Counted from the stretch's first letter, positions 145 to 44,662 are shown. The stretch: 52,266 bases of DNA from a bacterium (GCA_038145135.1 JAYQPD010000003.1:1-52266); one strand, 5' to 3'. Program-made: numbers and translations. The notes: generated by a model from the sequence alone, not told the origin.

Positions 145-1308
145 CTAGAATGTAGGCGTTGCGACGTATGTGAGTGTGGTACTGTAATCGTCACCTGCTT
201 CTTGGAGATCAGTGATCTCTACTTGATAGCCGATGCGTGTTGAGCCCACATTCGCTATTGCACCATCTGCCGGACCATTGTTTTCAAAGATCTGACGTGG
301 TGTTGTCGAGGCAGCGACCCACTTGTCGGTGCCAAATTCGTCGGCGTTGAGGTCGTCTTCTGAGGTGAGGCCCCAGTGACCCCATGTGCTTGTTGCGTTG
401 ACGTCACCAGAAGGAGTCTGCCATGTTGATGGCGAATTCGTATACTGGCCGTCAATGAATCCGTCAATGATTGCTCCAGTAGATGACTGAAGATCAGTGG
501 CTTGCTGAACTGTAACCACAAAGCCATTCTTGGCATTTGTCGATACAGTGAGATCCTGCGCCATTACCGTGGTTGTACCTGACACAAGGGTACCAAACGG
601 GATCGATGTCGCCGTAGAGGAACCTGCGGTCGTGGTTGCACCACCATTTACTGTTGAGCTTGTCGCTACACCAGAAATGCTGAAGGTGAATGTCGCATTT
701 ACGTCTGCAGTTACAACGACGTCGTCAATGATGGCAACGATCGTCGAACCGCTATCTTGCATACTTCCGGCGATCAGTATTTCATACGAACCAGCTGCGG
801 TCGGATTAGCAATGAAGCTATTACCTGTTGCACCTGCGGTCGCATTACTACCGATCTCAACGATCACTTCAGTACTTGAAGCGACTGTTGCAGCACCGAG
901 TGTAGTAGAACTCGTGTCGAGTGTGATGGTCGACGAAGTCGTCGCCACACCCCACGAGTCACCCGATCCTGTACCGTCTACAAGAGTGATCTCGACACCG
1001 CCTACCGTTACGTCTAGGTCATTGAAATCAAATCCAGCTGAAGGGAGGGTGAACTCACCTGCTGAAATTGGAAATGTAATGACAATGTTCTCACCATCGA
1101 TCAGTCCGTTAGGGACCGTGAAGGCAATGGTGTGGTTAGCGTTCACTCCAAGATCTGAATCAGAGAGTGTATCGCTGACCGACGTAAGGTTTGCTGCGTC
1201 AGCGTCACGGACAAATGTCGGTAGACCGAGACTCCAGAGGAGTATCGCGATACCAACGACACTTGCAACAACTTGAAGCATTCGCACGGCTTTTACCGTG
1301 TGAATCAT
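145..1308 (-). CDS. Secreted Thr/Ser/Gly-rich beta-type surface protein, family A copy 1 (paralog of 35010..36179); function unknown, tentatively WxL-like
   Basis: 387-aa ORF with an N-terminal hydrophobic signal/anchor (LQVVASVVGIAILLWSLGL...DADA). It shares long identical blocks with the 35010..36179 product (AGEFTLPSAGFDFNDLDVTVGGVEITL; YQVEITDLQEAGDDY). It ends in YSTTLTYVATPTF. A terminator lies just downstream. Confidence 0.8.
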   Translation of the reverse strand: MIHTVKAVRMLQVVASVVGIAILLWSLGLPTFVRDADAANLTSVSDTLSDSDLGVNANHTIAFTVPNGLIDGENIVITFPISAGEFTLPSAGFDFNDLDVTVGGVEITLVDGTGSGDSWGVATTSSTITLDTSSTTLGAATVASSTEVIVEIGSNATAGATGNSFIANPTAAGSYEILIAGSMQDSGSTIVAIIDDVVVTADVNATFTFSISGVATSSTVNGGATTTAGSSTATSIPFGTLVSGTTTVMAQDLTVSTNAKNGFVVTVQQATDLQSSTGAIIDGFIDGQYTNSPSTWQTPSGDVNATSTWGHWGLTSEDDLNADEFGTDKWVAASTTPRQIFENNGPADGAIANVGSTRIGYQVEITDLQEAGDDYSTTLTYVATPTF

Positions 1309-1767: not shown

Positions 1768-2919
1768 CTACCCTGTCCAGTTGAAGAGGAGGATCGAGAA
1801 GTCCTCAAGGCCAACGTTACCATTACCATTGATGTCAGCCGGTGGATTAGAGTTGCCTCCTGCCGTGCCCCACCAGAAGATAAGTATCGAGAAGTCGGTC
1901 AAATTGACCTTACCGTCTCGGTTCAGATCAGAACTACCAATGACTGGCTCTGCGTTTACGCCAACGCCAAACGAGAGTGTCGCTGAAAAGTTACTTTCCT
2001 TTTTTGTAGTTGCCGACACACCTTCAGTTATCGTGAACTTTGCTTTGACGGTATGAGACGCCTGCGAAAGACTTGAGCCTTCAAGAGTGTAGGACCACTT
2101 TCCAGACCCATCTGAGGATACCGTCTCTGTGCGAGCAGTGTTGTCAAATTGGAGTATGACTTGAGCACTAGGGATGGTATACCCACTAATGGTAAGCGTT
2201 CCGTTCCTTTCAATGCTCGAGGCAGACACCTTGATCGTTGGTGGAACATAGATTCCATTGACTGTGGTGACTGCCCCCTGGGTAACATCGAAGGTTGAGT
2301 TGAACGTTATGGAACGTGTCCGATCGGGATCGTTGGCCCAGAAACCCAGAGTGGTTGCACCTGGTTCGGCCGCAGTTGAGAATTGGAAGTCTCCCTTTGC
2401 ATTTGCCCGCACTGTACCAATAGTATCTCCGTCTTCAAGGATGCTTACCGTCACGTTAGGAAACGCTTTACCATTCACCGTAATACTAGTATCGCCAAGC
2501 TCTGTACTCCCACCACCTCCACCACCACCTGAAGAACCTGTCGTGTTACCACCACCTCCAGCAAGTGGTTCAATGGTACACGTTGCTGAGCAAAAGTCAC
2601 CTGAGTCATTATTGCCGTCATCACACTCCTCACTATATGTTGTCTGCAGAATACCGTCACCACAATACGGTCCGTATTGACACACTTCATTACACTGTCG
2701 ACCAGCGATCGTCGTTGAATACGTACCGATCTGTCCTGGTACGTCACACTCTTCATTCGAATCTATCAATGAGTCTCCACAAATAGAAATAGTGAGTGTG
2801 GTGGTAGCTATTTGAGTGGTCTCGTCGGCGTACACTACAGGGTTGCTCGAAGCAAGTGCAATGAGAATGAGACAGCTGCCGAATAGAAACGCCAGTGGTG
2901 TTGCGAATGCCCGAATCAT
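1768..2919 (-). CDS. Secreted protein with Cys-rich repeats, Gly-rich linker, Ig-like domain and C-terminal dockerin-type double EF-hand repeat
   Basis: 383-aa ORF with a signal peptide (LAFLFGSCLILIALASS). CGD..NEECD and CGDGILQTTYSEECDDGNNDSGDFCSATC resemble the Myxococcus-type cysteine-rich repeat. A G/S linker follows. The C-terminus DLNRDGKVNLTDFSILIFWWG...ADINGNGNVGLEDFSILLFNWTG is a dockerin type I-like duplicated Ca-binding motif. An ATGA overlap links it to the upstream gene at 2916-2919. Confidence 0.75.
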   Translation of the reverse strand: MIRAFATPLAFLFGSCLILIALASSNPVVYADETTQIATTTLTISICGDSLIDSNEECDVPGQIGTYSTTIAGRQCNEVCQYGPYCGDGILQTTYSEECDDGNNDSGDFCSATCTIEPLAGGGGNTTGSSGGGGGGGSTELGDTSITVNGKAFPNVTVSILEDGDTIGTVRANAKGDFQFSTAAEPGATTLGFWANDPDRTRSITFNSTFDVTQGAVTTVNGIYVPPTIKVSASSIERNGTLTISGYTIPSAQVILQFDNTARTETVSSDGSGKWSYTLEGSSLSQASHTVKAKFTITEGVSATTKKESNFSATLSFGVGVNAEPVIGSSDLNRDGKVNLTDFSILIFWWGTAGGNSNPPADINGNGNVGLEDFSILLFNWTG

Positions 2920-3884
2920 ACCTTACTCGAAGCTCGCGTTCTTCTACGAGCTGGAGCCGGTTTTGAACGTCGTGTAGAGCGCACGAGGATCAGAATGATC
3001 GAGACGAGTACTACGAATACCGGAACGAGTACAGAGAGCTTGTGTGCGAGTGAGAGGCCCATAAAGCCGTACCCAGCAGCTTGTAGGGTGCCATATGGCA
3101 AGATATTCATGTTAAGCTCGCCCTCTTGTTTGATCTCGTCTCCGTTAAAGATCTGATAGCGCGCCAAATACGTGCCTCGTGGAAGATGTGTGGGGAGTTC
3201 AGCAATAACCGTAGCTTGATCGAACGGATTGATCTTAGTGATCCTATTGGTATGTTCTGTTTCCTCAAGAAGTACTTGTCCAGAAGGGTCGTATATCCTA
3301 AAGACAACTTTAGATGGTGCGATCTTAACATTACCAATGTTCTCAAGGAACATTTCAAAATTGATCTTACCCGGGAAGTAGAGCCATCCAAGTTTATGAC
3401 CTTCGTTCAGATCTGAAAGACCGATCTTTCTTACACGGAAATCCTTTATTTGTTTATCGATGACCGTGATCTCAACATCCACCTGAGCACCGAGAGAGAT
3501 CGAAACAGCACCGCCAGCAACTTGTCCATCCGGAGCAGATGTCTTAATACGGAGATTACCAGTATACGTTTTGTAGGGAGCGTTATCAGGTACCTTGACC
3601 ACAACGGTCATGGGGACTTTGTCCTGTCCTGCAGGAAGTAAAAAGGAGTTTCCTTCTTTGATAGTGAACCAATCGTTGATACCAGGAACATCAACAGACA
3701 CATCAGCTTTAAGAGCTGAGGAGGGATCGCTTCGTACCAATAGAATCGTTTGTTCGTACGAGGCATTTCGAATCAAACTAGCATTGCGAACATAAGGAGG
3801 GGTGATACCAAAACCGGCATGTGCCTCAGGTACAAGGAACAAGAACAAAAGTACGGTCAGTAATACTCCGGTGAATTTACTCAT
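2916..3884 (-). CDS. Membrane-anchored two-domain beta-sandwich surface protein (DUF916/DUF3324-like architecture), copy 1
   Basis: 322-aa ORF. It has a signal peptide ending EAHA, two beta-rich domains (..VPMTVVVKVPDNAPYKTYTGNLRIKT..; ..FLENIGNVKIAPSK..), a C-terminal TM helix (VLVPVFVVLVSIILILV) and a basic tail (RSTRRSKPAPARRRTR). The architecture matches 33831..34904. Confidence 0.6.
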   Translation of the reverse strand: MSKFTGVLLTVLLFLFLVPEAHAGFGITPPYVRNASLIRNASYEQTILLVRSDPSSALKADVSVDVPGINDWFTIKEGNSFLLPAGQDKVPMTVVVKVPDNAPYKTYTGNLRIKTSAPDGQVAGGAVSISLGAQVDVEITVIDKQIKDFRVRKIGLSDLNEGHKLGWLYFPGKINFEMFLENIGNVKIAPSKVVFRIYDPSGQVLLEETEHTNRITKINPFDQATVIAELPTHLPRGTYLARYQIFNGDEIKQEGELNMNILPYGTLQAAGYGFMGLSLAHKLSVLVPVFVVLVSIILILVRSTRRSKPAPARRRTRASSKV

Positions 3885-3990: not shown

Positions 3991-5826
3991 TTACCAATCA
4001 ACAGACTCACCGACAACTGCAATGAATGTGTTCTCACCTTTGTAATCACCTGCAAGTGTGATCGAACCAGGAACGCGGATACCCCAGATAGTATTTCCAG
4101 TTGCCTGTGTAACTGTACTGGTCGACTTCTGAACATTTACTTCCAACTCAGCTGCCGTTGTTGAAGAAAGTGCAGTTGCAAGTGCGTAAGTCGTTGAGGT
4201 GGTTGCGTATACTTGCTCAGATGCAGGAATGGTTGAAGTAGATGAATTAGCACAAGGGAATCCAGTTGCATAGTTGATACACATTGAATGTCCTTGAAGT
4301 GTTTCATCAAGACCTACGTTACCTGTTGCTGCAATAGTAGTTGTTGCTGAGATAGGGTCTGTCTGACTACCTGGTTCGAGAGAACCATACGGGATGGTGA
4401 GTGAGTTAAGTGCGAACGCAAGGAAGGAATTCACTTCAACACCAGTCTGAGATTCAGAAGCAGAGCTTGAGGCAGCGTTGTCATCTCCAACGATCACCTG
4501 TGCAAGCCAGTTTTGTGTTGAGTATTGAGTTGAGGTAGCGGTGCCATCTGTAGGGTCAGCGATGTACCAAAGTGGGAACGTACAGTCGTAGACTTGTGTA
4601 GTATCAGAGGCACCAGTACATGAGGTTGATGAGGCAGTACAACTGAAAGCCCACGTAGATGTTCCAATGGCGGTGTTATAGCAGTTGTTTGGATCGTAGT
4701 CGCCTGCGGTATTTGTTGTGCATGAAGTAGATGCAACACCAGAACGATAGAGTGAGAATTCATAGGTCGTGATCTCGCTGGTCGAAGCAGCATTGATACA
4801 ACTGTTATTATCAGCAGCTATGAACTGGAAGGTAAAACCAGACGTAGTAGCAGCTTCCTGAGTTAACGTGATGTCAGCGCCTCCGTTAATTGAGATGGTC
4901 GAGCTCGCAACTGTTGGTGTGGCATTTGCAACCGTGAGTGTTGAGTCTGTTCCCTGTGAACCACCAGACGCTTCAAAGCCGTGGTTGTCTATAACAAATC
5001 CGTATGCAGTGTAATTTTGGTCCTGTGTTGGAATAGTGACAGTGTATGTAGTGCTTGCATTTGATGAAGCAGGGACCGTTGACGATGCAATATAGCCACC
5101 TGGACCACACTCATTAGTGGAAGTACTGAAATCGTTATCATTACAGACGATAAGACGAACAGTATCAGCAGTACCAGACACGTCAGTATCTGAAGAAGTA
5201 CTCATGAAAGTGACCACCTGACCAGGAAGCGTTGGTGAGTCGTCGATGAACGCAGTGAACGTTGGGCGATGGTTAACCTCAAATGGTGTTGATGTTGTGC
5301 CAGTTCCCTGCTTATAGTCATTTACACAGCGTGGGTTGGTAGCATTATCGTCGCAGATCCATGCATACCAAGCATTCACTTCTGACCATGAGGCTGCAGT
5401 TGTTGTGGCTGCACGCGCTTGGGTAGCGCTAAGGGTAGAAGTTGAGACAGCCCACTGGTTGGTCGGTGAGTCACATTCAGGTGCTGCGCTTGCGTTAGGA
5501 GTTGGTGATGCTGCCGTCGAACAGATAAGGAGGTAGTATGGCTCGTCGTTCGAGTCAGTACCGATAGCAACCCATGATACAACGTCACCTGCATTAGTTG
5601 GGAAGTCTGATGACGATTCAAATTCCTCCTCAGCATCGACAGTCCATTGTGGCGGGGTGTTCAACACGGTTACTGATGTGGTCGCCACACTTTGTGCCTC
5701 CACTTGATTGAACGTTCCCTTGCTGACGTTGATGGTGAAAATGAATGCGAATGACAGAAGACCGAGAATACACGCAAAGACCGACACCTTGCCGGCAGTG
5801 GACACGTTATTTATGTTATACGCCAT
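3991..5826 (-). CDS. Secreted Cys- and Thr/Ser-rich protein whose C-terminal ~310 aa are homologous to the C-terminal module of the giant protein
   Basis: 611-aa ORF with an N-terminal anchor/signal (VSVFACILGLLSFAFIFTI). Its C-terminal region (LNSLTIPYGSLEPGSQTD...GNVGLDETLQG...GENTFIAVVGESVDW) parallels the giant-protein end (LEVTQSIDYGSLETESDTG...GNDAIDILLAG...GVNTFYATAD). Confidence 0.75.
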   Translation of the reverse strand: MAYNINNVSTAGKVSVFACILGLLSFAFIFTINVSKGTFNQVEAQSVATTSVTVLNTPPQWTVDAEEEFESSSDFPTNAGDVVSWVAIGTDSNDEPYYLLICSTAASPTPNASAAPECDSPTNQWAVSTSTLSATQARAATTTAASWSEVNAWYAWICDDNATNPRCVNDYKQGTGTTSTPFEVNHRPTFTAFIDDSPTLPGQVVTFMSTSSDTDVSGTADTVRLIVCNDNDFSTSTNECGPGGYIASSTVPASSNASTTYTVTIPTQDQNYTAYGFVIDNHGFEASGGSQGTDSTLTVANATPTVASSTISINGGADITLTQEAATTSGFTFQFIAADNNSCINAASTSEITTYEFSLYRSGVASTSCTTNTAGDYDPNNCYNTAIGTSTWAFSCTASSTSCTGASDTTQVYDCTFPLWYIADPTDGTATSTQYSTQNWLAQVIVGDDNAASSSASESQTGVEVNSFLAFALNSLTIPYGSLEPGSQTDPISATTTIAATGNVGLDETLQGHSMCINYATGFPCANSSTSTIPASEQVYATTSTTYALATALSSTTAAELEVNVQKSTSTVTQATGNTIWGIRVPGSITLAGDYKGENTFIAVVGESVDW

Positions 5827-6003
5827 ACTAAATAACGAACTTCATTACTTACTCAACAATTATACGCGTATATCAATTACCGTGCGGTGAGTTATACACA
5901 GGCCACAACAGTGGTCCAAAGTTCAATTTTGAATACGCGCTAGTTGGTGTTTGCGACGCTTACCCTACCCTGTTTGTGGCATGGACAGCGGAGATAGTGA
6001 GTG

Positions 6004-7212
6004 CTACTCGTACCTGATCGCATCCAATGGATTGAGTAGTGCAGCGCGACGAGCTGGGAAGATACCGGTCAGGTAGCCAACGATCGCTGAGAACGTCATG
6101 ATGAACATCAAGAACCAGAGCGGGAACGCGAAGAGCTTTACCGCTTGTCCGCCAAAGTGCGTCGCGACCGCGTTAAGGAATGTATTGATGATGACCCCGA
6201 TGCCGACACCCATAACGATACCTGAGACACCCCCAAGAAATCCTACCAGCACTGATTCCGAAACGAACAGAAGTTTAATATCGGTCGGTGATGCCCCGAT
6301 CATACGCATGACACCGATCTCTTTAGTACGTTCGAGAAGAGTCACCGTCATGGTGTTAAACATACCGATAGCAGACACAATAAGGGCTATACCGCCAAAT
6401 GCGGCGAGTACTGCCTGAATTCCTTGGAAGATCTTTGATGCTTGTTCTACAGTCTTTGAGAGTGCGGTCACACGAAACCCTTTCTCAATAAGGCCCTTTT
6501 CAACTGAATCGAGATTTGCGCTGTCATTTACACGTACTTGCGCTCGGTCGTAGATGTCGACACCGACATGACGCTTAAGTTCAGGCAACATGATGAGCGC
6601 ATTCAGCGCACCCTCTTCTTTGGTGATACCTTTGACGCGATACTGCTTGTCGATCACGATCTCATCAACCTGATCAGGGATCTCTTTAGAGGGGATGAGT
6701 AATCTGAATGAAACGGTCTGACCGATCATTTTCTCAGGATCATCTATCGCAAAGAGTTTGAGTACCGCTGGCGAAATAATGACACTAGTATCGTCTCCGG
6801 CGTCCTCATCAGTAAAAACATCGCCCGCGGACGCAGTGATGCCGCTATAGCGAATGTACGGTGGTTCAGCACCCTGGAGGAAGATGTTTCCAGTGAGACC
6901 TTTGTAGGTTATCAGTGCAGGAAATCGTCCAAGTGGTGCGGCGTCGAGTACGTTATCCATACGTTCTATCTCAGTAATGGTTTCGTCAGTGATCTGTATC
7001 GTGCGTGACCCTGTCGAAGAAACGCCGAGAGAGAGAAGCGTCTCACCAAACACGATCTGCTCAAGAATGATCTGTTGGAGACCAAAACCCAAACCTACGA
7101 GCATCACCACAGCGCCGGTACCCACACCCATACCCAAAATAGTAAGCCACGTACGCATTGGATTCGTTTTGAACATGCGGGTAGATAGTGATGCAAGATC
7201 GACAACGCGCAT
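6004..7212 (-). CDS. ABC transporter permease, FtsX/MacB type, with a large extracytoplasmic domain
   Basis: 402 aa. TM1 (WLTILGMGVGTGAVVMLVGLGFG) is followed by a ~230-aa extracytoplasmic loop. The C-terminal three-TM FtsX module carries LLERTKEIGVMRMIGASPTDIKLLF and ends FPARRAALLNPLDAIRYE. Confidence 0.9.
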   Translation of the reverse strand: MRVVDLASLSTRMFKTNPMRTWLTILGMGVGTGAVVMLVGLGFGLQQIILEQIVFGETLLSLGVSSTGSRTIQITDETITEIERMDNVLDAAPLGRFPALITYKGLTGNIFLQGAEPPYIRYSGITASAGDVFTDEDAGDDTSVIISPAVLKLFAIDDPEKMIGQTVSFRLLIPSKEIPDQVDEIVIDKQYRVKGITKEEGALNALIMLPELKRHVGVDIYDRAQVRVNDSANLDSVEKGLIEKGFRVTALSKTVEQASKIFQGIQAVLAAFGGIALIVSAIGMFNTMTVTLLERTKEIGVMRMIGASPTDIKLLFVSESVLVGFLGGVSGIVMGVGIGVIINTFLNAVATHFGGQAVKLFAFPLWFLMFIMTFSAIVGYLTGIFPARRAALLNPLDAIRYE

Positions 7213-7222
7213 ACTTTGTGAG

Positions 7223-8545
7223 TTACTTTTTGTAGTTTACATCAACACCTTGCGCAATAAGCTTCTCAAGGTAACGGGTAATGTCATCAGCCACCGATTT
7301 ATTCAAGCCAAGACCGTGGCCTCTACTTTTCGAGACTAGCAGTTCAGTAAAATCATCATCGTTCGAAACACCGGTGACACGGTCGGCGATCAGCTCAGCG
7401 ATTCGTTCTTGTTGTTTTTCGCTCAAACGCACCCCATGGCCCTCAATTAAATACTCCTTGAGGCGGTCGGCAAACTTGTGCTGTTCGAAAAACGCTGTGT
7501 CGTTCTTATTGTGAGCTCGGTACCTTCTTATGTCATCAGCCTGTTGGACGATCTTGACCGCAAGGTCGGCCATATGCTCCGCTGTTGCACGATCGAGTCC
7601 TACACCGCCTTCATCGTACTTGCGTACCAAGACAGAAATGAAGTTTTTCTTGTGTATCTTACCTTTGATGAGTTGTAATATAGCATGTTCAAGTCGTACG
7701 ATCTGGTCGAATGTGTAGTCTTGCGTCAGGTAGTTGACCAAGCTTTTAACACGTAGCGTGTCGATCGAGTCATAGGGGAAGAGACGTGCAAGCTGCTCGA
7801 GTTCGGTAACGATGGTTTCTCCTTCATGCACTGTTTTTATCTGCTTGCGCTGCGGATTCACCACCTCGCGGACCACAAGCCCATCTTTAAGGTAGTACAC
7901 GCGGTGAGCATACTGAAGATGAGCCGCATTGTGAGAGACCATGATGATCGTTCGTTTATCAAATGTATTGATCTCGTCGATCTTATCCATAACCTGTTGG
8001 GTAGACACGCTATCGAGGTTACCCGTTGGCTCATCGGCAAGAAGGATGCGCGGATCATTGACCATCGACCGTGCAACCGACACACGCTGCTGCTGACCTC
8101 CTGAGAGCATTGAGGGGATCTTATGAGAGACTTGCCCTACTCCAAAACGGTCAAGGAGCGACTGCGCGCGACGATCACGAGAGGCCTTATCACGGTTCGC
8201 AAAGATCATCGGCAGCGCAACGTTGTCCAAGACAGAAAGCGAACCGATCAAGTTGAACGATTGGAAGATGATCCCCATCACGTGACGCTGGAAGAACACA
8301 CGCTCAGAAGGAGGGTACGCGTAGATATCATCACCATCAATAAGCATGGTACCTCCAGATGGTGGGAGTGCCCCCTGGATCGCATACATCAAGGTAGATT
8401 TTCCTGAACCTGACGTGCCGAAAAGAATGATGTACTCACCTTCATAGATGTCAGTATTCACGTTCGTGAGCGCTTTGAACTCATTCGATTTACCGCGATT
8501 GTATGTGATGTCGAGGTTTCGACAGATGATAAGTGGTTTTGCCAT
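7223..8545 (-). CDS. ABC transporter ATP-binding protein (MacB/LolD-like) with a ~215-aa uncharacterised helical C-terminal extension
   Basis: Walker A GTSGSGKST, Q-loop FQSFNL, signature LSGGQQQR, Walker B ILLADEPTGNLD and H-loop VSHN are all present. I placed the start at the ATG at 8545 (MAKPLIICRNL), 15 nt after the upstream stop. The ORF-track start at 8584 would overlap the preceding gene. Confidence 0.9.
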   Translation of the reverse strand: MAKPLIICRNLDITYNRGKSNEFKALTNVNTDIYEGEYIILFGTSGSGKSTLMYAIQGALPPSGGTMLIDGDDIYAYPPSERVFFQRHVMGIIFQSFNLIGSLSVLDNVALPMIFANRDKASRDRRAQSLLDRFGVGQVSHKIPSMLSGGQQQRVSVARSMVNDPRILLADEPTGNLDSVSTQQVMDKIDEINTFDKRTIIMVSHNAAHLQYAHRVYYLKDGLVVREVVNPQRKQIKTVHEGETIVTELEQLARLFPYDSIDTLRVKSLVNYLTQDYTFDQIVRLEHAILQLIKGKIHKKNFISVLVRKYDEGGVGLDRATAEHMADLAVKIVQQADDIRRYRAHNKNDTAFFEQHKFADRLKEYLIEGHGVRLSEKQQERIAELIADRVTGVSNDDDFTELLVSKSRGHGLGLNKSVADDITRYLEKLIAQGVDVNYKK

Positions 8546-8559
8546 ATGTATGTGCCCTG

Positions 8560-10119
8560 CTAGCCGCCGATGTTCTTGACCCAACCGAAGGTGCCCTGGA
8601 AGTTTTCAATGATGATGTCGATGATGTTCTTCTCCTTGATCGGCGTAAAGAGTACGAAGTCTTCTGACTCGACTGAGTTTGTCTGCTCATCTTCACAGAT
8701 AAGTGAGAATTTATACACGGTCGCTGGAGCAAAATCGGTGATCACTTCGACGTGACGCTCAGTGTAGCTCTTGTCCTCTGACTCGAGGATGGTTGGATCG
8801 GTACCCGCCTGAAGACCTTCACGGTACGAGAGTACGCACAGTGCCGGCTCGTCGGTCAGCCACTCAATGATCGTCTGAATGCGGGCCTCACTTCCCGGGA
8901 AGAGTGTAGATTCGTTGGTTACGTTCGAGATGATCGGTGGTGCGGTATCTTTCGCGGTCACAAAGGTGATCGGATTTGACTTTACGCGGTCACCACCGGC
9001 ATTCTCAGCGATCACGAACGCAACGTAGCGCGCACCGAGTACGAGGCCATCGATCTGCATCTGGTTGGATGCAGCGTAGGTTGGCCGACCTTTTGAGTTC
9101 TGCTCCCCATTCGTGAGATTCTGATACTCCACAAGCGCCTTCGCAGGTACGGTGGTATCCCATGCGAGGGTCGCCGAGTTCTCTTCTACCTTAAGCACCC
9201 GCAGGTTTCTGATCTGCGGAAGAGATGCCTTGGTCTTAAAGGTATAGTCACGACTCTCACCAGTGATGTCATAGGTATCGGTCGACTTCACCTTGAAGTG
9301 GTACTCAGTGAATGGTTCGAGACCGATGAGGCGCACTTCATGATCGGTCGTTGCATCGCCGGTTGATGACTGCGAGAGTGCGTACTGACCTTCTATAAAG
9401 CTGTCTGCGGGAGAGAACACCACCTCAGACGTCGCCTCACGGTCGGTCGTCCATTTAACAGTCGCGGAAGTAGTCTCGGCGATAACTGTCGGGGGACCAA
9501 CAATAGTGAGATCCTCTGTGATGCCTTGGATCGCCTTCACCGTCTCGTTCAAGATCTCCTTCAGTTGCTCTGGTGAGGTGATCTGTTGTAACGCCTCTAT
9601 CGCCTGTTGAGTTGCGGTCTGGTTGTTTGTTGCGGTATCGGTACTACTGTTACTTCCCTGTCCGTTCCCGTTGCCATTTCCAGCTTGCGTTGCCTGACCC
9701 TGCCCCTCCGCAGCGCCCTGCCCGGCCGCGGTCCCATTGCCATTTTGCTGTGAATCTCCTTTTGTCTCGATCTGATAGTCTGCAGAGATACCTTGGTTGC
9801 CATCCTCATCGGCTGACACGACACGGAAGTGATACTTTCTTCCAGGTTCGAGGTTCTCAAGCAAGATCTCGTGCTGCTGTTTATCTGCTACTGGTATGCG
9901 CACGATGCCGTAATCCTCCTGTAGACCATAATTCACGAGCGAATCGGAATCCTCATCGGTTTCCCAGGTGATCTTAAGCGAGTTCTCGGTCACATCGGTC
10001 ACTTCAACATTTGAGATATCTGGGGGTGTGGTATCAGCAGCTAGCACAATAGTCGCATTGCTCTCGAGTAGTACGAGATACAAAAGAAGATACGCGAGCG
10101 ATCGCTTCCACGCGTGCAT
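8560..10119 (-). CDS. Secreted protein with four fibronectin type III-like domains and a Gly/Asn/Gln low-complexity linker
   Basis: 519 aa with a signal peptide (LAYLLLYLVLLESNATIVLA). Four repeats follow the pattern PP.ISNV.V....S..I.W.TDE.S.S.V.YG...Y, for example LEPGRKYHFRVVSADEDGN and LEPFTEYHFKVKSTD. The linker is GNGTAAGQGAAEGQGQATQAGNGNGNGQG. Confidence 0.8.
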   Translation of the reverse strand: MHAWKRSLAYLLLYLVLLESNATIVLAADTTPPDISNVEVTDVTENSLKITWETDEDSDSLVNYGLQEDYGIVRIPVADKQQHEILLENLEPGRKYHFRVVSADEDGNQGISADYQIETKGDSQQNGNGTAAGQGAAEGQGQATQAGNGNGNGQGSNSSTDTATNNQTATQQAIEALQQITSPEQLKEILNETVKAIQGITEDLTIVGPPTVIAETTSATVKWTTDREATSEVVFSPADSFIEGQYALSQSSTGDATTDHEVRLIGLEPFTEYHFKVKSTDTYDITGESRDYTFKTKASLPQIRNLRVLKVEENSATLAWDTTVPAKALVEYQNLTNGEQNSKGRPTYAASNQMQIDGLVLGARYVAFVIAENAGGDRVKSNPITFVTAKDTAPPIISNVTNESTLFPGSEARIQTIIEWLTDEPALCVLSYREGLQAGTDPTILESEDKSYTERHVEVITDFAPATVYKFSLICEDEQTNSVESEDFVLFTPIKEKNIIDIIIENFQGTFGWVKNIGG

Positions 10120-10271
10120 AGTATCTCAATTATACACGTGCCAAACGTGTTCGAATTCGTGCCGTGTGGAATTCGACCCCTTAGACTGTGTCGCAGAGTG
10201 GATAGCTACTCATTTATTTTTCACATGAGCTCACTACAGCACTACCATGTGCGAGTGAGTACATACGAGCA

Positions 10272-11045
10272 TTAATCGGCGGTCGCGTAGAAGGTATTTA
10301 CGCCTTCATGTGCATCAGCCGCAGTGCCAAATGGAATGTAGATACCCCAGAAGACAACGTCGGTGACCGGCGTTGGATTGGTCGGCTTCGCAAGATCCAC
10401 TTCGAGTGCCATGGTGGAGGTGCCGAGCAGATTACAGGTCGTACACGAACTATAGGTGAACGAAGAGGTCGCATACTTTTGCTCATTAACGGGGATCACG
10501 GAAGCGCCATTTGTCAGGTTCGTACCTGCAAGGAGGATATCGATCGCATCGTTTCCGATGTTGTCGATGGTGGTCGTCGCATTATATGAGCCAGTATCTG
10601 ACTCCGTCTCAAGTGAACCATAATCGATCGATTGTGTGACCTCTAGTGCGCGGAGTGTGAGAAGCTCCGTTCCACTTGCGACCGTGGCAGTGCCATACCC
10701 TCCCGCAGTATCAACAGATGAAATGTATGCGTACCACGAGTCGCCGCTATAGACACCGATGTCGGTCGCATCAGCAAAGTAATAGATATCCGCACTACAG
10801 GTCACTATACAGCTGTTACCGCTGCAGTTCGAGAATGAACATGACGAGACCGGATAACACTCGTTGTCATTAGCTGTACAGGACGCACCACCGGAGACCG
10901 AGGAACGATAGATCGTTCCAGTTGCTGATACTACATCGCTGTATCCGTTGAGGTCCGTGACAGTTCCGGTCGCACTTACGGTTGTTGTCGCACCCGGAGA
11001 GAGACTGATATCAAAGCCATCATTAAGAGTCACATTTGTTATGTA
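10272..11045 (-). other. Cys-rich C-terminal module of the giant protein, homologous to 3991..4925
   Basis: ITNVTLNDGFDISLSPGATT...CTANDNECYPVSSCSFSNCSGNSCIVTC...IDYGSLETESDTG...GVNTFYATAD aligns by eye with the C-terminal ~310 aa of the 611-aa protein. Confidence 0.6.
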
Positions 11046-14000
11046 GGGATCATACCTGATCTGCATCTCAGCCACCTCAGAGTAGCTGTCAAGATCTGCA
11101 CCATTATCGGTGACGCGGAAACAGTACCCACCCGCTGTCGCATCTTGTGTTGCGATCATGTCGTACTCAACCTCTGTAAACTCATCTTGGTTGATGTTGA
11201 GACTTCCAGTCATATTCGAAGTGTCTTGGACCATCTTACCGTAGGTAAATGTGCCGAGTCCTCCGAGAAGATCAGTGGTCGATGCCTGATCAGCAAAGTT
11301 TGAAGAATCTGTCATACAAAACGCATCAGTGCCACATGAGGTGGAATCAGGGACCGCGCTATACGTTGCGTATGACACTGCTTCACAGGACGGTGAGGCA
11401 CCCTTTTCAGCGTACTCGAGGCGGAACTGTTTACCGGTCACATCGAGTCCGCTGTTCTCAATGACGAAGCGGAGACGCGCGGTCGACGAAGGTATGAGGC
11501 TTGAGGAGAGCGTGTCGAGTGCTGCGATCCATGTCGCGCCGCCAGAGACCTGCTCGACACCTAAGCGCACCGATGGTTCAGTGGTGAGTAGCGGACGAGC
11601 TGAGTAGATATCCCACCCGCCGTGCTGGAACCAGAACGAGAACCCTACTCCTCCGCTTGTGTACGTACTATCCACGACCGTCGTTGAAGCGACCTCACTG
11701 CCGCCACTGTAGAGTGTGGCGGTGATCGAGTCATCAGTACCCCAGCGGATCTCCACTTCATACCAACCGGTCGAGTAGCTTACTGTGGTCGACGAGAGTA
11801 CCGTACCACTTCCGTCGTTATCGTTGCTGACGACATCCTTCGCGATACTCATACGGTCAGTGCCAGCAACCTGCTCAAGACAGACCGCATAGTTGTTGTT
11901 ATTGGAACCTGGCGTCTGGACACCAAAGAGCGTACAGACCTCATCAAAGGTACCTCCGGCGTCGACGTACTCAAAGTAGCGAATCGTTTCACCTTGTGCC
12001 ACTGACACATCGGTGCGGTAGATACCATCCGTCGTCTGACCACTCACATCAGATGCCTTTAGTCCTCTCGTACGCTCATACGCAAACGATGCGTCCACAC
12101 TGAAGAGGCTTGTATCGCCAGAATATTCACTTATGTTGCTGTCTTCAAATTCATCCAGATACGGGAAGGTGGTCGACGCTGAGCCATCTGACGCACCAGC
12201 ATTCTTATAGTACGCGAAGATCGAAGTGTCAGTTGACGTTGCGAGCAGTGGCACCTCGACCCATACGACTGCCTCAGATGACGCAGTGTATGACTCCTTA
12301 AAGAAGTTGAGTGCGGTCGTGCCATCATCAGCTGTGAACCGAAGGTCCGAGAAATCTCCCTGCATATCGCTGTCATACGGGATAGTGACCTTCACGACCG
12401 CATTGGTGTAAGACTGAGGATCATCGTTCGTTAAGACAACACGTACACGCCGTGTCCACGAGAGGTCGTACCACTCACTATTAGGCACTCCTTCTCCCCC
12501 GTCGTCGTTGCGCCACCTGAAGTGCGTCTGCGCGAGAAGGAGACATGAGCTATCGGTCCAGCGGAGTGAGCCACAGTTATCTCCACCATCAACGTCGTAG
12601 TTCTCACCAGCGAGATTACCGGAGTGGGCCGTGAAGGTCCACGCCGATGGTGTGGTGCCGACCAGTGTGATGTTCTTTCCAGAGATAGCAGTGGTCGTGG
12701 AGAAGGTCATAGCTGTGTAGACCGCTGATGCATTTGCATTCAATGTCGTTGATGAGAGGGTGATGAGTGTACCAGTATCAACTGCAAGTTCAAAGTCACC
12801 GTACGACAACGAGGACACAGTGGTAGTGCCTGAAAGCTCAAGTCCGCTGATACCGAGGTTCCTGAATGCATAGTATGACGCATTAAAGGTACCTCCGCTC
12901 GCTTGTACCGAGTACGTCCCGCTTCCCTGATTAGTGATCGTTGTGGTCGCACCTGCCGCGCCAATAATGTTTAGTGTTCCTTGACTCAAGGTCGACGTAG
13001 CAGTATCAGCAAAGCGAACCGTGACCGGACGTGACGCTGCGGCGCCATCGAAATCGGTCGCATAACTCCAGTAATCAACTCCAGTTGTTCTATGGTAGTC
13101 GCCATAGATATAGAGCTCACCATCAGCCGCACCATGATCCATTGAATAAAGTGATCCTGATGGGTCGACCGTGGTAGAAGTAGCATTCGTGTTCCAAGAC
13201 GTGACATCGAGGTCGGGACCGACGTAGAGCACGTTGTAGCGGTCGCCCCCCGCTGACTTGGTGTTGATCGCATACGTAGTGGTGCCGACAAGGCGAAGTG
13301 TTGAACCGTCCCAGTTCGTCGCACTACCACCGACCGAGTTGAGGAATACACCTCCTACTGAAAGCGTGGTTGACGAAGCTTGGCGGTACGAGGTCAGAGT
13401 GGTAAGAGAAAGATTATGTGTAGTGGTCGCACTCGACACGGTCCATCCGCCAGATGCATTCGCAAATGACACGTTGTAGAACGGTGAAGCTCCAGGATCA
13501 ACCGTCTCCCCAGTGTCGCTCGAGTTGAAGAGTACCGTACCCGACGCGTGATCAAAGGTGCCTCCTGTTGCGGTAAGCGAACCTGCGATAGCGAGGGTGT
13601 TGGTTGCAAAGGTTACCGCACCAGACTGGATCGTGAGCGAGCCCGCAAGTGCAAGTGAACCATCGAGCATCGTGTACGCACCACTACCAGCAAAGATGAC
13701 ACTGCCGAGGTCGCTTCCATTTGCCTTGAGTGATTCAGTGGTCGTACCAGTGAGACGGAGTGTACCACTGTTATGCGTAAGTGTGCCGGTACTTGTCGCG
13801 ATAAAGCTTGAGCCGACCGCAAATATTCCACTCGGGAGAGAAAGTGTGCCATGAGATACCGTGACTGAAAGTGTCGTGGTCGCATTGGTGTCTGGCATTG
13901 ACCAGGAGCCTCCCACGCCATCTACGACGAGCCGGTTAAGACTTGAACCATTGAGTCTGAGTGTCTTTCCTCCCGCGGTGCCGTTGAGGGCAAGCGTGCC

Positions 14001-26966: not shown

Positions 26967-27029
26967 TGTCTCCACAACAATGGGCCCACACACAAATTAT
27001 GTGGCTAGAGTGAGGGCCAGTTTAAAGTA

Positions 27030-33830: not shown

Positions 33831-34904
33831 TCAGGCTACCAAGAATAGGAGCGCTATCAGGAAGAGTGCGGTGACAGTGAGAAGGGTTACCGCAACGATA
33901 GAGAGGCGTGTCACTCCCCTGCCGCGACTTCGGTACGATGATCCGCGGCGAGTCGGTACCTGGTATCGCTCGAGAGTGCGCCTAATATGGAGTCGTACAC
34001 CGAAGTACACAACAACAACAATAAGTACGAGGATGCCAAGGATCGGTAGGATCACATTAAGTGGTAACACCCAGAATGAGATCGTTGAAGCGATCGTGGT
34101 GTCGTGCCCGTCCTCGCCATAGATAAGTGCGACTATGCCTTGGTAACGTCCAATAGCAAAATCCTTACTGTCCCAGGTCACATCAAATGCGCGAATACTT
34201 CCAGGGAATACACCACCAAGGGTGTCATTGACCACAAGGGTCTCCACCTTCTTTCCGAACATGTTACGGATCTCGAGTGGACCGCGTGGACGAACTAGAA
34301 CATTACCCCCGTTCTCAACCCGAGTACTGAAGGTGACCTTGGGTGAACTATAGACGAGTTTATCAGTTGAAAATGAACGGATCGATGCAACCTCGTTCGC
34401 CTCCCCAGCAATGCGGATCGAGATAATGGTCCCTACCTCGTAACCTACAGCCGCACCAGTAGCACGAAGGCGAGGTGGTGTCATGGTCACGAAGAGACCG
34501 GCGAAGTGACTCCCTGGTGTTGCAGTATCAGGCACGCGGATGGTGACCGGAACATCTGCCGCAGCACCAGGCTGAAGCACGATCGGTTCTTCAGATACCT
34601 CGATCCATGACGACATCTCGTATCCGGTCTGTTCAGCACCCTCTTCAGCAAAAACAGGTTGGTTGTTCGAGGCAACACCAGTGATATCACGATGGAGGAG
34701 GTAATAGGTCTGTTCAGAAGAACTGATGTTGCGAATGGTGAGTGTCTCTTCAAGTATCGCACCAGGCGCCAATCCCTCCTCTATGATGGCAGGTTGTATC
34801 TGCACACCAGCAGATTGCTGAGCGTGTACTGTAGATGGAGAAAGCGGAGCGAGTAGAAGGACAGAAAGAAAAGCAAAAACGAACGTTTTAAAAAATGAAC
34901 GCAT
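33831..34904 (-). CDS. Membrane-anchored two-domain beta-sandwich surface protein (DUF916/DUF3324-like architecture), copy 2
   Basis: 357 aa with a signal peptide ending VHA. Key motifs are SSWIEVSEEPIVLQPGAAADVPVTIRVPDTATPGSHFAGLFVT and STRVENGGNVLVRPRG. C-terminal TM helices follow (ILPILGILVLIVVVVYFGV plus a second). It is comparable to 2916..3884. Confidence 0.6.
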   Translation of the reverse strand: MRSFFKTFVFAFLSVLLLAPLSPSTVHAQQSAGVQIQPAIIEEGLAPGAILEETLTIRNISSSEQTYYLLHRDITGVASNNQPVFAEEGAEQTGYEMSSWIEVSEEPIVLQPGAAADVPVTIRVPDTATPGSHFAGLFVTMTPPRLRATGAAVGYEVGTIISIRIAGEANEVASIRSFSTDKLVYSSPKVTFSTRVENGGNVLVRPRGPLEIRNMFGKKVETLVVNDTLGGVFPGSIRAFDVTWDSKDFAIGRYQGIVALIYGEDGHDTTIASTISFWVLPLNVILPILGILVLIVVVVYFGVRLHIRRTLERYQVPTRRGSSYRSRGRGVTRLSIVAVTLLTVTALFLIALLFLVA

Positions 34905-36179: not shown

Positions 36180-36464
36180 ATTTATAATTTGTAAATAACT
36201 CTTACGTGCGCCTGCACGTTCTCGATCCGCGAAAGCGTGTGGAGAAGTGATTTCGCTCGAGCTGTGCATCAAAAACGATGCAGCCGATCTTGCTCAAGTT
36301 CCGTCACCCTTGCCTTCTACGGTCGACCTACATACTATTGTACAGACCTTTTAGCGACAGCATACGACATGAGTGTTGATAACTATTCTCAATGTCTTTA
36401 AGTTGCATTCGTCTCATACTGTGAAAGAAAAGATGATCAGCATACGGACATAAGGACAGGCTAG

Positions 36465-40867: not shown

Positions 40868-40871
40868 GAGA

Positions 40872-44501: not shown

Positions 44502-44662
44502 AATCGTAATTCCCACTTAGTAACTTTTTATAATCTTTCCACCAAAAGACCTAATATTCATACACACCCGAAAGCCAAGCATACGCTTAGCGCTCAGTTG
44601 TCATATATTATGACGGCAAAGCTCCCCTTTGCCTACAGCTAATCGCTAGTATATAGCGCTAT

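Follow-up and report, generated by a model that had tools for sequence, protein, structure and literature searches.

Results

Organization of the locus

The window, that is, the whole stretch of 52,266 nucleotides of DNA from an ultra-small bacterium (CPR/Patescibacteria) that was analysed (GCA_038145135.1, JAYQPD010000003.1:1-52266), carries the genes for a giant protein, a 611-aa protein, two membrane-anchored chaperone-like proteins and two proteins that are here called family A (Table 1). The 611-aa protein consists, in order, of a signal peptide, a conserved N-terminal strand, two Ig-like domains and a C-terminal module, and its full-length orthologues, which show 58-75% identity, are found in more than 120 clusters. 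It matches nothing in Pfam, NCBIfam or PDB sequence searches, and its AF2 model is a string of beta-sandwiches with a mean pLDDT of 76. The giant protein starts with a hydrophobic signal or anchor segment, which might stay uncleaved and thereby change the geometry of assembly, and continues through a spacer rich in Pro, Thr, Ser and Glu and Ig-like and DUF2341 domains (Pfam matches to DUF2341 and Ig_Rha78A_N) to a C-terminal module. Orthologous giants of 5,587 and 6,296 aa are encoded in the same gene order elsewhere. The 322-aa chaperone-like protein consists of a signal peptide and two beta domains followed by a TM helix and a basic tail at the C-terminus; the translation of the 357-aa protein likewise shows a TM helix at its C-terminal end. 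The two family-A copies are 75% identical, and AF2 models family A as two beta domains joined by a highly conserved, unpaired linker (residues 194-206).

Table 1. Features of the locus and the evidence by which they were placed
Feature	Position	Strand	Basis
Family-A protein, 387 aa, putative divergent Pam-type pilin	145..1308	-	NF058581 sub-cut-off, hhalign
387-aa protein, NTD			
387-aa protein, conserved linker IIDDVVVTADVNAT	691-732		
387-aa protein, CTD	148-690		
322-aa membrane-anchored chaperone-like protein	2916..3884	-	downstream of 611-type gene, paralogy
322-aa protein, TM helix	2982-3038		
322-aa protein, conserved alternating strand GGAVSISLGAQVDVEITVIDK	3453-3515		
611-aa "611-type" subunit	3991..5826	-	ORF
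611-aa protein, candidate donor strand, residues 45-59, QSVATTSVTVLNTPP	5650..5694	-	conservation, AF2
611-aa protein, module N-half, residues 297-462, Cys-rich Ig-like beta-sandwich	4441..4938	-	alignment with giant, five Cys, AF2
611-aa protein, module C-half, residues 463-611, probable divergent Pam-pilin-type CTD, putative strand acceptor	3994..4440	-	hhalign
Giant payload protein, 5,573 aa	10272..26993	-	ORF
Giant, module, residues 5312-5573	10275..11060	-	BLASTP E=1e-18, module HMM E=1e-94
Giant, module N-half	~10671-11060	-	
Giant, module C-half	~10275-10670	-	
357-aa membrane-anchored chaperone-like protein	33831..34904	-	adjoins family-A pilin gene
Second family-A protein, putative Pam-type pilin, 420-aa ORF	35010..36272	-	NF058581 E=1.6e-4 and 1e-5
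Second family-A protein, linker	35556-35597		
Second family-A protein, CTD	35013-35555		

At the predicted mature N-terminus of the 611-aa protein, residues 45-59 appear to form an orphan beta-strand, which we regard as a candidate donor. The segment is nearly invariant among close 611-type orthologues and is the sole conserved block within the first ~60 aa of distant ones, where T.VT..N...P is retained in at least 80% of the 12 orthologues aligned. AF2 leaves the strand unpaired (pLDDT 40-66), and its phi-x-V-x-N-x-x-P signature recurs in FEVNHRP (182-188) and LTVANATP (297-304), the strands at two internal domain boundaries of the same protein. The strand is absent from the giant and the other payload proteins that were read.

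A C-terminal module shared by the giant and the 611-aa protein

The first-pass annotation of this DNA had proposed, from an alignment by eye, that the giant and the 611-aa protein end in a common Cys-rich module, and a BLASTP comparison between the 611-aa protein and the C-terminal 599 aa of the giant agrees with it in both position and motifs. A single co-linear alignment (75.9 bits, E=1e-18, 102 of 342 positions identical) begins at the Ig-like start and extends as far as the G.NTF.A strand at the end, and the homologous tails amount to ~260 aa of the giant and ~315 aa of the 611-aa protein. In a MAFFT alignment the two modules are 36% identical, with IxYGSLE, GN..D..L.G, WGI..P and G.NTF.A invariant. 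Judged from sequence, the homology of the two modules is confirmed far beyond chance. The module HMM detects the giant (E=1e-94, open-frame residues 5314-5574) and the 611-aa protein (E=6e-86) and no third carrier in this genome, the next-best ORF scoring E=0.39.

When the two-module profile was searched against 1.84 billion cluster representatives (50% identity), 1,075 were matched at E<=1e-3 and 333 at E<=1e-30. The family carries no annotation in the databases searched. The proteins of 150 representatives range from 174 to 4,137 aa, and in 145 of them fewer than about 15 aa lie between the end of the module and the C-terminus; the N-terminal parts of the module-bearing proteins are unrelated to one another. 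The proposed Cys cluster was borne out as well: among 55 members, C369 and C382 are conserved in 100%, and C396, C403 and C415 in 93-96%. Of 301 genomes sampled from the phylum, 12 carry the module, and the named relatives are labelled Parcubacteria, Paceibacterota, Kaiserbacteria, Minisyncoccia or "Patescibacteria group", which agrees with the restriction to CPR/Patescibacteria that characterizes the Pam system described below. One 8-kb contig with a relative carries a Planctomycetes label.

Searches of the module proteins against Pfam, NCBIfam and PDB sequences assigned the module to no family, enzymatic or other, and Foldseek returned generic multi-Ig matches only. In the AF2 model, the strands of the module N-half (E333-448) are mostly predicted with pLDDT of 80-90, and the C-half has pLDDT of 60-70, which would fit an incomplete fold and equally a shallow alignment.

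Relationship of family A and the module to Pam pilins

The Pam pilus of Ca. Mycosynbacter amalyticus is composed of the pilins PamA/B/E and the tip protein PamT, with the chaperones PamC/D and with PamR, and has been reported mainly from Saccharimonadia and Microgenomatia (Troman et al., bioRxiv 2026, PMC13278184). NF058581 (CPR_Pam_pilin_C) covers its full profile on the 387-aa family-A protein and ends at the C-terminus, below the cut-off; it matches 16 of 29 family-A members (best 4e-6), with scores of 17-25 bits against a cut-off of 55 bits. With hhalign, the family-A CTD matched canonical Pam CTDs at P=1e-16 to 5e-19 and 99% probability. By these profile comparisons, the family-A proteins appear to be divergent Pam pilins.

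The relationship of the module itself is far more remote. NF058581 does not match the module here at E<=1, and in one other genome (G085) it weakly touches the module C-half at the site matched by the module profile (E=0.047). When the module C-half (149 sequences) was aligned by hhalign with 41 canonical Pam CTDs, the alignment ran end to end over 131 columns, with a local P of 3e-4 and a global P of 4.6e-5, but with an HH probability of only 41%. Control comparisons of the module N-half and of the chaperone with the Pam CTD profile gave P=0.29-0.85. The native match-column scores of 25.2 (local) and 21.3 (global) stand against 12.9 +/- 1.9 and 4.3 +/- 2.3 for the block-shuffled null, in which 0 of 100 shuffles reached the native score. 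Profiles dominated by family A reached only P=0.02-0.08 against the module, no better than one control, and the module N-half showed no similarity to the Pam NTD (P=0.36). Neither sequence search nor Foldseek (the latter with entries up to April 2026) found a Pam or WxL pilin in the PDB.

These results suggest that the last domain of the module is a remote relative of the strand-exchange pilin domain of Pam. The family-A C-termini, ..TTLTY(V/I)ATPTF, had been counted as the same module, which hmmsearch and jackhmmer do not support, as neither connects the module with the Pam or family-A CTDs; profile-profile comparison with canonical Pam pilin CTDs does, with the last strands of the module, WGIxIP..aG.YtG.NTF.A, aligned to Y.anI...aGsYsttLTYiAT. 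The idea of one module on four proteins thus appears to be right for no more than the terminal ~145-aa domain, in which the relationship is remote. Giants with canonical Pam CTDs are also encoded in other CPR genomes, their open frames measuring 5,528, 6,452 and 3,829 aa.

WxL identity and the chaperone-like proteins

The module had been likened to the WxL domains of Firmicutes. The WxL profile PF13731 finds no match in the whole genome in six frames at E<=10, and a permissive hmmscan returned no family, WxL included, at E<=0.1 for the two module proteins and at E<=1 for the two family-A proteins. Instead of the two Trp-x-Leu motifs of WxL domains, the module has a single conserved W-G-(I/L), located in its penultimate strand; the 611-aa protein and the giant have WGI there (W581-G-I in the former), and some relatives have WGL. 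The analogy is apt in function but fails as family membership, and non-covalent binding to the wall finds no support, the evidence pointing only to the chaperone-like protein as a partner. A recent preprint describes the WxL domain itself as a pilin domain with an incomplete Ig-like fold, which is primed by a membrane chaperone of the DUF916/DUF3324 type and is C-terminal in 2,867 of 2,871 tip adhesins, and it reinterprets the wall-binding role of WxL as one in pilin assembly (Sleutel et al., bioRxiv 2026, 10.64898/2026.10.17.759780).

The 322-aa and 357-aa proteins are paralogous (BLASTP 9e-9), and jackhmmer converges on five such paralogues in the genome, three of which show sub-threshold matches to DUF916 (PF06030; best 3.6e-5). 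Against a cut-off of 27.3 bits, the 357-aa protein scores 17.8-19.9 bits and two paralogues on other contigs score 23 bits. The earlier label "DUF916-like" thus stands as a sub-threshold resemblance, directly for the 357-aa protein alone of the two proteins to which it was given (PF06030 E=4e-4 to 4e-3; 4.4e-4 in the genome-wide search; in Pfam, fn3_5 at 1.7e-5 and WxLIP_PGBD (DUF916) at 0.0035, both sub-cut-off). The 322-aa protein has no direct PF06030 match and is linked via paralogy; its paralogy and topology suggest a chaperone fold. The best match of PF11797 (DUF3324), at E=0.12, is to an ORF on another contig (C31), outside the five paralogues.

At this locus and at 11 others, the 611-type gene is directly followed by the gene for the 322-aa protein. 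Ten other module-positive genomes from across the phylum were compared, and in nine of them a module gene is followed after 3-110 bp (0-50 bp if ORF calls are used) by the start of a chaperone-like gene; two metagenome loci show the same order. Four of these genomes, which are 97-100% complete, have no NF058581 match even at E<=10, so that the module is the only candidate chaperone partner there. Several module genes usually share one chaperone gene, and of the five paralogues in the present genome, four adjoin proteins with a Pam-type CTD and the fifth adjoins the module. The pairing points to the 322-aa protein as the cognate partner of the module.

Discussion

We think it rather probable that the module is a two-domain unit, in which a disulfide-braced Ig-like beta-sandwich precedes a ~145-aa divergent relative of the Pam CTD, and that it acts as a docking (strand-acceptor) unit mounting proteins on a surface fibre. 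The kinship with the Pam pilin domain and the chaperone-like gene that almost always follows make such a handle probable, and the first-pass proposal of a shared anchoring or assembly handle is, in this sense, supported by the C-terminal position, the gene pairing and the remote similarity to the Pam acceptor domain. As far as sequence comparison can tell, the locus represents a Paceibacteria form of those pili that rely on chaperones and donor-strand exchange and are known as Pam in CPR and as WxL/Elr in Bacillota. Module-bearing proteins would be exported via Sec and then held at the membrane by the dedicated, TM-tethered PapD/DUF916-like chaperone of 322 aa that is encoded just downstream, before beta-strand complementation joins them to other subunits. 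The 611-type protein with its orphan N-terminal strand would be the recurrent subunit or adaptor of the fibre. Payloads of variable size, such as the 5,573-aa giant, carry the acceptor module and lack the N-terminal strand, and would for that reason sit distally as adhesins. The strand exchange itself, the identity of the donated strand and the order of the subunits are what we infer.

A bolder version, which we put forward tentatively and consider rather doubtful, is that the 611-type protein makes up, together with its dedicated chaperone, a self-sufficient donor-strand fibre system anchored by cohesin and dockerin, which would be a sister of the Pam and WxL pili and not an accessory to them. 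The 611-type subunits would polymerise head to tail, the N-terminal strand of one entering the module of the next, and giant module-tailed adhesins would cap the fibre. A 383-aa DUF4215/Ig/dockerin protein, which has a donor-like N-terminal strand and no acceptor domain, would close the fibre and tie it to a membrane cohesin protein. If true, this would represent a pilus anchored by a cohesin-dockerin pair, and the CPR and Bacillota systems would be joined as one ancient membrane-chaperone pilus family.

Among other explanations, the one to be taken most seriously, although we regard it as unlikely, is a stable surface anchor, in which the module is permanently bound to the tethered 322-aa protein and the giant and the 611-aa protein are displayed singly without forming a polymer. 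The pairing of the module with a membrane-anchored partner is the only interaction to which the data point directly, that partner ends in a TM helix with a basic cytoplasmic tail, and DUF916/DUF3324 proteins were formerly viewed as such linkers (PMC10599100). The homologous systems that have been studied, however, build fibres in which the tethered protein is a transient chaperone (Pam, PMC13278184; Elr/WxL, 10.64898/2026.10.17.759780), and a permanent anchor leaves the conserved orphan strand of the 611-type protein without a role and is difficult to reconcile with one chaperone gene usually serving several module genes. A true WxL domain, or another non-covalent wall-binding domain that sticks the proteins to peptidoglycan, seems very improbable: the conserved W-G-(I/L) of the penultimate strand and the weak DUF916 similarity of the neighbouring proteins are in its favour, but PF13731 is unmatched at E<=10, only one W-x-L-like motif is present, no known wall-binding family is matched and the wall role of WxL has itself been recast as pilin assembly (10.64898/2026.10.17.759780).

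The module might also have no docking role and be just the stalk or membrane-distal end that two paralogous surface proteins have in common through duplication. Both proteins are strings of Ig-like domains, and domain shuffling is common among CPR surface proteins, but it would then be left unexplained that the module sits strictly at the C-terminus of hundreds of proteins that are otherwise unrelated, that it is linked to a chaperone-like gene within 3-110 bp and that it resembles Pam CTDs, and we give this idea little credence. Least credible of all is a C-terminal export or sorting signal that would serve a MacB-type ABC transporter (6004-8584) in the manner of the T9SS CTD or of the C-terminal signals in type I secretion. 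An ABC ATPase and a MacB/FtsX permease are indeed encoded between the two module genes, in an order kept in close relatives; yet both module proteins have N-terminal Sec-type signal sequences, ABC and MacB homologues occur in none of nine distant loci with module and chaperone, and with its 260-315 aa, its two folded domains and its conserved disulfides the module does not resemble a secretion signal.

The proposed docking unit shares several features with Pam. The phylum is the same, and the predicted layout of family A, in which a conserved linker joins an NTD to a CTD, is that of Pam pilins. Pam CTDs can be aligned with the module C-half over its whole length, and the chaperone-like proteins fit PamC/D in topology, with an N-terminal signal, a ~260-aa beta ectodomain of two domains and a C-terminal TM helix. 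A protein that has an acceptor domain and lacks a donor strand would take the tip position, which is also the one proposed for PamT. Unlike Pam pilins, the module scores below every NF058581 threshold and constitutes its own family, with a Cys-rich Ig domain in addition. The payloads to which it is fused reach several thousand residues, and such fusions are absent from the description in the preprint (PMC13278184). It also occurs with its own chaperone in genomes where no canonical Pam pilin is detectable. In the 611-type protein the candidate donor strand is N-terminal, in contrast with the inter-domain linker of Pam, and the present genome is Paceibacteria-like, outside the classes mainly reported in the preprint.

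The WxL/Elr pilus is built from the WxL pilins ElrD/ElrC, the tip adhesin ElrA and the LPxTG base subunit ElrB with the DUF916/DUF3324 chaperone ElrE, and is reported as confined to Bacillota (10.64898/2026.10.17.759780). It resembles the present locus in the invariant C-terminal attachment domain with variable payloads, in the small protein with the same domain encoded alongside, and in the adjacent gene for a membrane-anchored two-domain chaperone. It differs in phylum, and the proteins studied here lack a WxL HMM match and the dual motif, with DUF3324 at E=0.12; the operon encodes no LPxTG base subunit and has dockerin and cohesin genes instead. The chaperone-usher tip adhesins FimH and PapG, in which a receptor-binding domain precedes a C-terminal pilin domain with an incomplete Ig fold, follow the logic that is proposed here: the payload ends in an acceptor domain and brings no donor strand, and its groove is complemented by the chaperone and later by the strand of a neighbouring subunit. 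In contrast with FimH and PapG, the present system has no usher and no outer membrane, its chaperone is tethered to the membrane, sequence similarity is absent, and the payload is 10-20 times larger.

Results

The C-termini of the 611-aa protein and the giant 5,573-aa protein, which the first-pass annotation had aligned by eye, form one co-linear segment in a BLASTP comparison (75.9 bits, E = 1e-18, 102 of 342 positions identical), and the two modules share 36% identity in a MAFFT alignment. These values confirm that the C-termini are homologous, and the motifs named at the time hold. The Ig-like start, IxYGSLE, GN..D..L.G, WGI..P, and G.NTF.A are invariant between the two proteins. The module is a unit of two domains, a Cys-rich, Ig-like N-terminal half and a C-terminal half that is a putative acceptor. 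All five conserved Cys lie in the N-terminal half, C369 and C382 occurring in 100% and C396, C403, and C415 in 93 to 96% of a 55-member alignment. When 1.84 billion cluster representatives were searched with the two-module profile, 1,075 proteins were retrieved at E ≤ 1e-3, 333 of them also passing E ≤ 1e-30. The module-bearing matches range from 174 to 4,137 aa in length, and the module ends at most 15 residues from the C-terminus in 145 of the 150 best. No third ORF of its own genome (946 kb, 99.9% complete) has it, the next best E value being 0.39, and all genes relevant to the module locus are on the minus strand. One member of the family, P0188 (566 aa), comes from an 8-kb contig labeled "Planctomycetes bacterium" by NCBI; either this contig is of CPR origin and was mis-binned, or the family also occurs outside the phylum.

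Features of the locus and of related loci. Positions without a prefix refer to contig JAYQPD010000003.1; C4 and C25 are other contigs of the same genome, and G020 and G175 are genomes of the 301-genome Patescibacteria sample.
Feature	Position	Strand	Remarks
Family-A pilin-like protein	145-1308	minus	NF058581 match below cut-off
383-aa protein	1768-2919	minus	DUF4215/Big_6/dockerin; directly after the 322-aa chaperone-like gene
Mature N-terminus of the 383-aa protein	2782-2820	minus	TTQIATTTLTISI
322-aa chaperone-like protein	2916-3884	minus	Signal peptide, beta-rich ectodomain, C-terminal TM helix, basic tail
611-aa protein	3991-5826	minus	Module at C-terminus
MacB/FtsX-type permease and ABC ATPase	6004-8584	minus	Between the two module genes
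Giant 5,573-aa protein	10272-26993	minus	Module at C-terminus
Cohesin, fn3, and TM protein	27102-28634	minus	Two genes from the 618-aa protein
618-aa protein	29339-31195	minus	Family-A-like pilin NTD, Ig domains, C-terminal dockerin
Tandem paralogues, 275 and 290 aa	31416-33112	minus	Each with N-terminal TM segment
357-aa chaperone-like protein	33831-34904	minus	Signal peptide, beta-rich ectodomain, C-terminal TM helix, basic tail
Family-A pilin-like protein	35010-36272	minus	NF058581 match below cut-off
Class F sortase and 1,214-aa protein	40181-44516	minus	SpaA-type prealbumin-fold repeats and C-terminal hydrophobic tail in the latter
Acidic proteins, 414 and 338 aa	44730-47036	plus	Secreted
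Repetitive Thr-rich protein	50335-52266	minus	Continues past the window end
2,093-aa protein and two chaperone-like genes (L001, L036)	C4:7885-16850		Terminal Pam-type CTD
261-aa protein and 351-aa chaperone-like gene (L035)	C25:7723-9530		Pam-CTD-like domain
Pam CTD, example (L024)	G175:C1:60162-60548
Pam CTD, example	G020:C9:273709-274149

No family was found for either module protein by hmmscan against Pfam and NCBIfam at E ≤ 0.1 to 1, and PDB sequences gave no match at E ≤ 10 to the 611-aa protein or to one protein of family A, the two related pilin-like proteins of the locus. The profile of the WxL domain (PF13731), with which the module had been compared, drew no match at E ≤ 10 when the entire genome was searched in all six frames. 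AF2 modeled the 611-aa protein (mean pLDDT 76, 44-sequence alignment) as an N-terminal helix followed by a chain of beta-sandwich domains. Foldseek comparison of both whole AF2 models with the PDB returned only generic multi-Ig, adhesin, and integrin matches, with TM values of 0.1 to 0.25 because the models are multi-domain, and neither a Pam nor a WxL structure was among them, PDB releases being covered up to April 2026. Given the beta-sandwich chain and the generic nature of the matches, no unrelated enzymatic family, the alternative raised in the first-pass annotation, is assignable from Pfam, NCBIfam, the PDB, or Foldseek.

The 322-aa and 357-aa chaperone-like proteins are paralogues (BLASTP, 9e-9), and jackhmmer started from the former against all ORFs of the genome converged on exactly five proteins. 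Four of them adjoin proteins with a Pam-type C-terminal domain (CTD), and the fifth, the 322-aa protein itself, adjoins the module. The 357-aa protein lies next to family A; on contig C4, two chaperone-like genes follow that of a 2,093-aa protein whose terminal Pam-type CTD matches NF058581 (NCBIfam CPR_Pam_pilin_C) at E = 2.6e-8; and on contig C25, a 351-aa chaperone-like gene stands beside that of a 261-aa protein, one domain of which is Pam-CTD-like. Three of the five paralogues have sub-threshold matches to PF06030 (DUF916), the best at 3.6e-5 and 23.4 bits against a cut-off of 27.3.

The pairing of module and chaperone recurs across the phylum. Twelve genomes of the 301-genome Patescibacteria sample carry the module, and in nine of the 10 other module-positive genomes tested a chaperone-like gene starts 3 to 110 bp downstream of a module gene (0 to 50 bp when ORF calls are used). 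The sole exception is 79% complete and has its module near a contig end. Two metagenome and MAG loci have the same arrangement. The recurring unit comprises an orthologue of the 611-aa protein (611-type; ~560 to 615 aa), composed of a conserved N-terminal region and the module, then the chaperone gene, and often further module genes, the products of which are either paralogues of the 611 type or proteins of 280, 748, 1,063, 1,247, and 2,893 aa whose N-terminal parts are unrelated. In four genomes of 97 to 100% completeness that hold both module and chaperone, NF058581 found no match even at E ≤ 10, and the module is therefore the only candidate for the client of the chaperone there. Two other candidate partners were rejected. 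The ABC/MacB transporter, whose ATPase has a C-terminal extension of ~215 aa, was found in none of nine distant loci, its arrangement being kept in close relatives only, and the family-A pilins, considered as obligatory partners, were found in only one of five module-positive genomes tested.

The closest known system to this locus is the Pam pilus, described in 2026, in which each pilin is composed of a beta-sandwich N-terminal domain (NTD) and a linker strand that is passed to the next subunit's open CTD, and the chaperones PamC/D are membrane-anchored and PapD-like (PMC13278184). Matches to NF058581 were found in 16 of 29 family-A members (best E = 4e-6), and those in the two family-A proteins of the locus are sub-threshold, cover the profile from end to end, and stop precisely at the C-terminus. 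Comparison of the family-A CTD by hhalign with 41 canonical Pam CTDs, collected from NF058581-matching loci (most above the cut-off) in the 301-genome sample, gave P = 1e-16 to 5e-19 and a probability of 99%. The most conserved family-A segment is the inter-domain stretch IIDDVVVTAxV, which is unpaired in the AF2 model. Family A fits the description of Pam pilins. A Pam-type CTD profile also matches inside the family-A NTDs (residues 101-185 and 140-228, E = 1e-9 to 8e-12), a hint that the two domains of these pilins might have originated by duplication. In other CPR genomes, canonical Pam CTDs are found at the C-terminus of huge open frames, one of 5,528 aa (above cut-off) and further ones of 6,452, 3,829, 3,748, and 3,044 aa; the Pam preprint makes no mention of giant cargo on Pam pili (PMC13278184).

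A likeness between the terminal strands of the module and of family A had also been noticed by eye. Neither the module HMM, run against the ORFs of its own genome, nor jackhmmer started from a Pam-type CTD linked the two families, and in hhalign, Pam-CTD alignments made up mostly of family-A sequences yielded P = 0.02 to 0.08, which is no better than one control. A convincing score was obtained only with the canonical Pam CTD alignment, with which the C-halves of 149 modules aligned end to end (module 1-142 of 146, CTD 28-178 of 178) at a local P of 3e-4 (score 29.9) and a probability of 41%; the best P, 4.6e-5 in global mode (score 26.8), becomes ~2e-3 after correction for the total of about 38 profile comparisons. 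As controls, the chaperone family and the N-half of the module were compared with this Pam profile, with P = 0.29 to 0.85. The native scores on the match columns used for shuffling, 25.2 local and 21.3 global, compare with 12.9 ± 1.9 (maximum 18.2) and 4.3 ± 2.3 (maximum 12.0) for 100 block-shuffled module profiles and with 19.5 and 11.3 for the reversed profile. The alignment pairs I.YGsL of the module with the Pam FG.l motif, tGN.glD..l.G with TNA..GY.it, and, in the last two strands, WGI.IP...aG.YtG.NTF.A with Y.anI...aGsYsttLTYiAT. This agrees with the likeness noticed by eye. NF058581 itself has one weak match (E = 0.047) in genome G085, located on the C-half of the module there. Judged from these profiles, remote homology between the module C-half and the Pam CTD is likely, though short of proof.

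Residues 45-59 of the 611-aa protein (QSVATTSVTVLNTPP), the N-terminus predicted for its mature form, are nearly invariant among close 611-type orthologues. In distant ones, this stretch is the sole conserved block within the first 60 residues, at least 80% of the 12 sequences aligned having retained T.VT..N...P, and AF2 assigns the segment no secondary structure, with low confidence. Its signature, phi-x-V-x-N-x-x-P, is shared with FEVNHRP (182-188) and LTVANATP (297-304), both situated at internal domain boundaries, and because of this agreement the segment may be a spare closing strand that lacks a domain of its own. The giant and the other payload proteins read (module-bearing proteins not of the 611 type) have no such N-terminal segment. 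A strict regular expression for the strand matched 13 of 57 611-type representatives, some of which are not full length, and the pattern is perhaps too strict.

A segment that resembles this orphan strand, conserved in both orthologues read, forms the N-terminus of the mature 383-aa dockerin protein. The order of the 322-aa chaperone-like and 383-aa dockerin genes is also found in two other genomes, where cohesin genes then follow. In the 618-aa protein, the NTD runs through a conserved linker, VAIVDQVTV (BLASTP, 2e-12 to family A), and no CTD follows; this protein could be a chain-terminating subunit, by which the pilus base is tied to the membrane via a cohesin-dockerin pair.

Discussion

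Attachment to host cells is the way of life of CPR bacteria (Patescibacteria), and their genomes contain many genes for giant surface proteins. To our knowledge, their cells have no outer membrane and few recognizable anchors on which giant proteins might be mounted. For one widespread lineage, the module offers a concrete and testable answer to how this is accomplished. The membrane-tethered chaperone would recognize the C-terminal handle, and payloads of thousands of residues would be loaded onto a strand-exchange fiber in which 611-type subunits act as both donors and acceptors and payload proteins as acceptors only. The lack of the N-terminal segment in payload proteins is what such a division of roles would lead us to expect. 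What we infer here is that strands are exchanged, which segment acts as the donor, and how the subunits follow one another. The module also defines a domain family, so far without annotation and exceeding 1,000 clusters, with which candidate host-contact adhesins can be picked from metagenomes.

In its logic, the proposed system is closest to the WxL/Elr pilus of Bacillota (10.64898/2026.10.17.759780). This likeness makes the WxL analogy drawn in the first-pass annotation a good description of how the module probably works, but membership in the WxL family failed the tests run, and wall binding found no support. Because the module and chaperone occur in genomes without detectable Pam pilins and the chaperone paralogues are weakly DUF916-like, these sequence relationships suggest that the Pam ("CPR-only") and WxL/Elr ("Bacillota-only") pili, both published in 2026, are branches of a broader family. 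The module, giant payloads on such pili, and a link between Pam and WxL are described in neither preprint (PMC13278184; 10.64898/2026.10.17.759780).

The window holds several other genes. Of the tandem paralogues, which lie inside the surface-protein island, the first matches Pfam FGE-sulfatase (SUMF1-like) and the second has only weak matches to EgtB/SenA-type NCBIfam families. The class F sortase adjoining the 1,214-aa repeat protein, together with the similarly repetitive Thr-rich protein, may form a surface system of its own in this neighborhood, one that depends on the sortase. The two secreted proteins of 414 and 338 aa are extremely acidic, one having a poly-Asp tract, and consist of repeated units of ~45 aa containing Y(E/D)(N/S)GD(T/K)E..(F/I).
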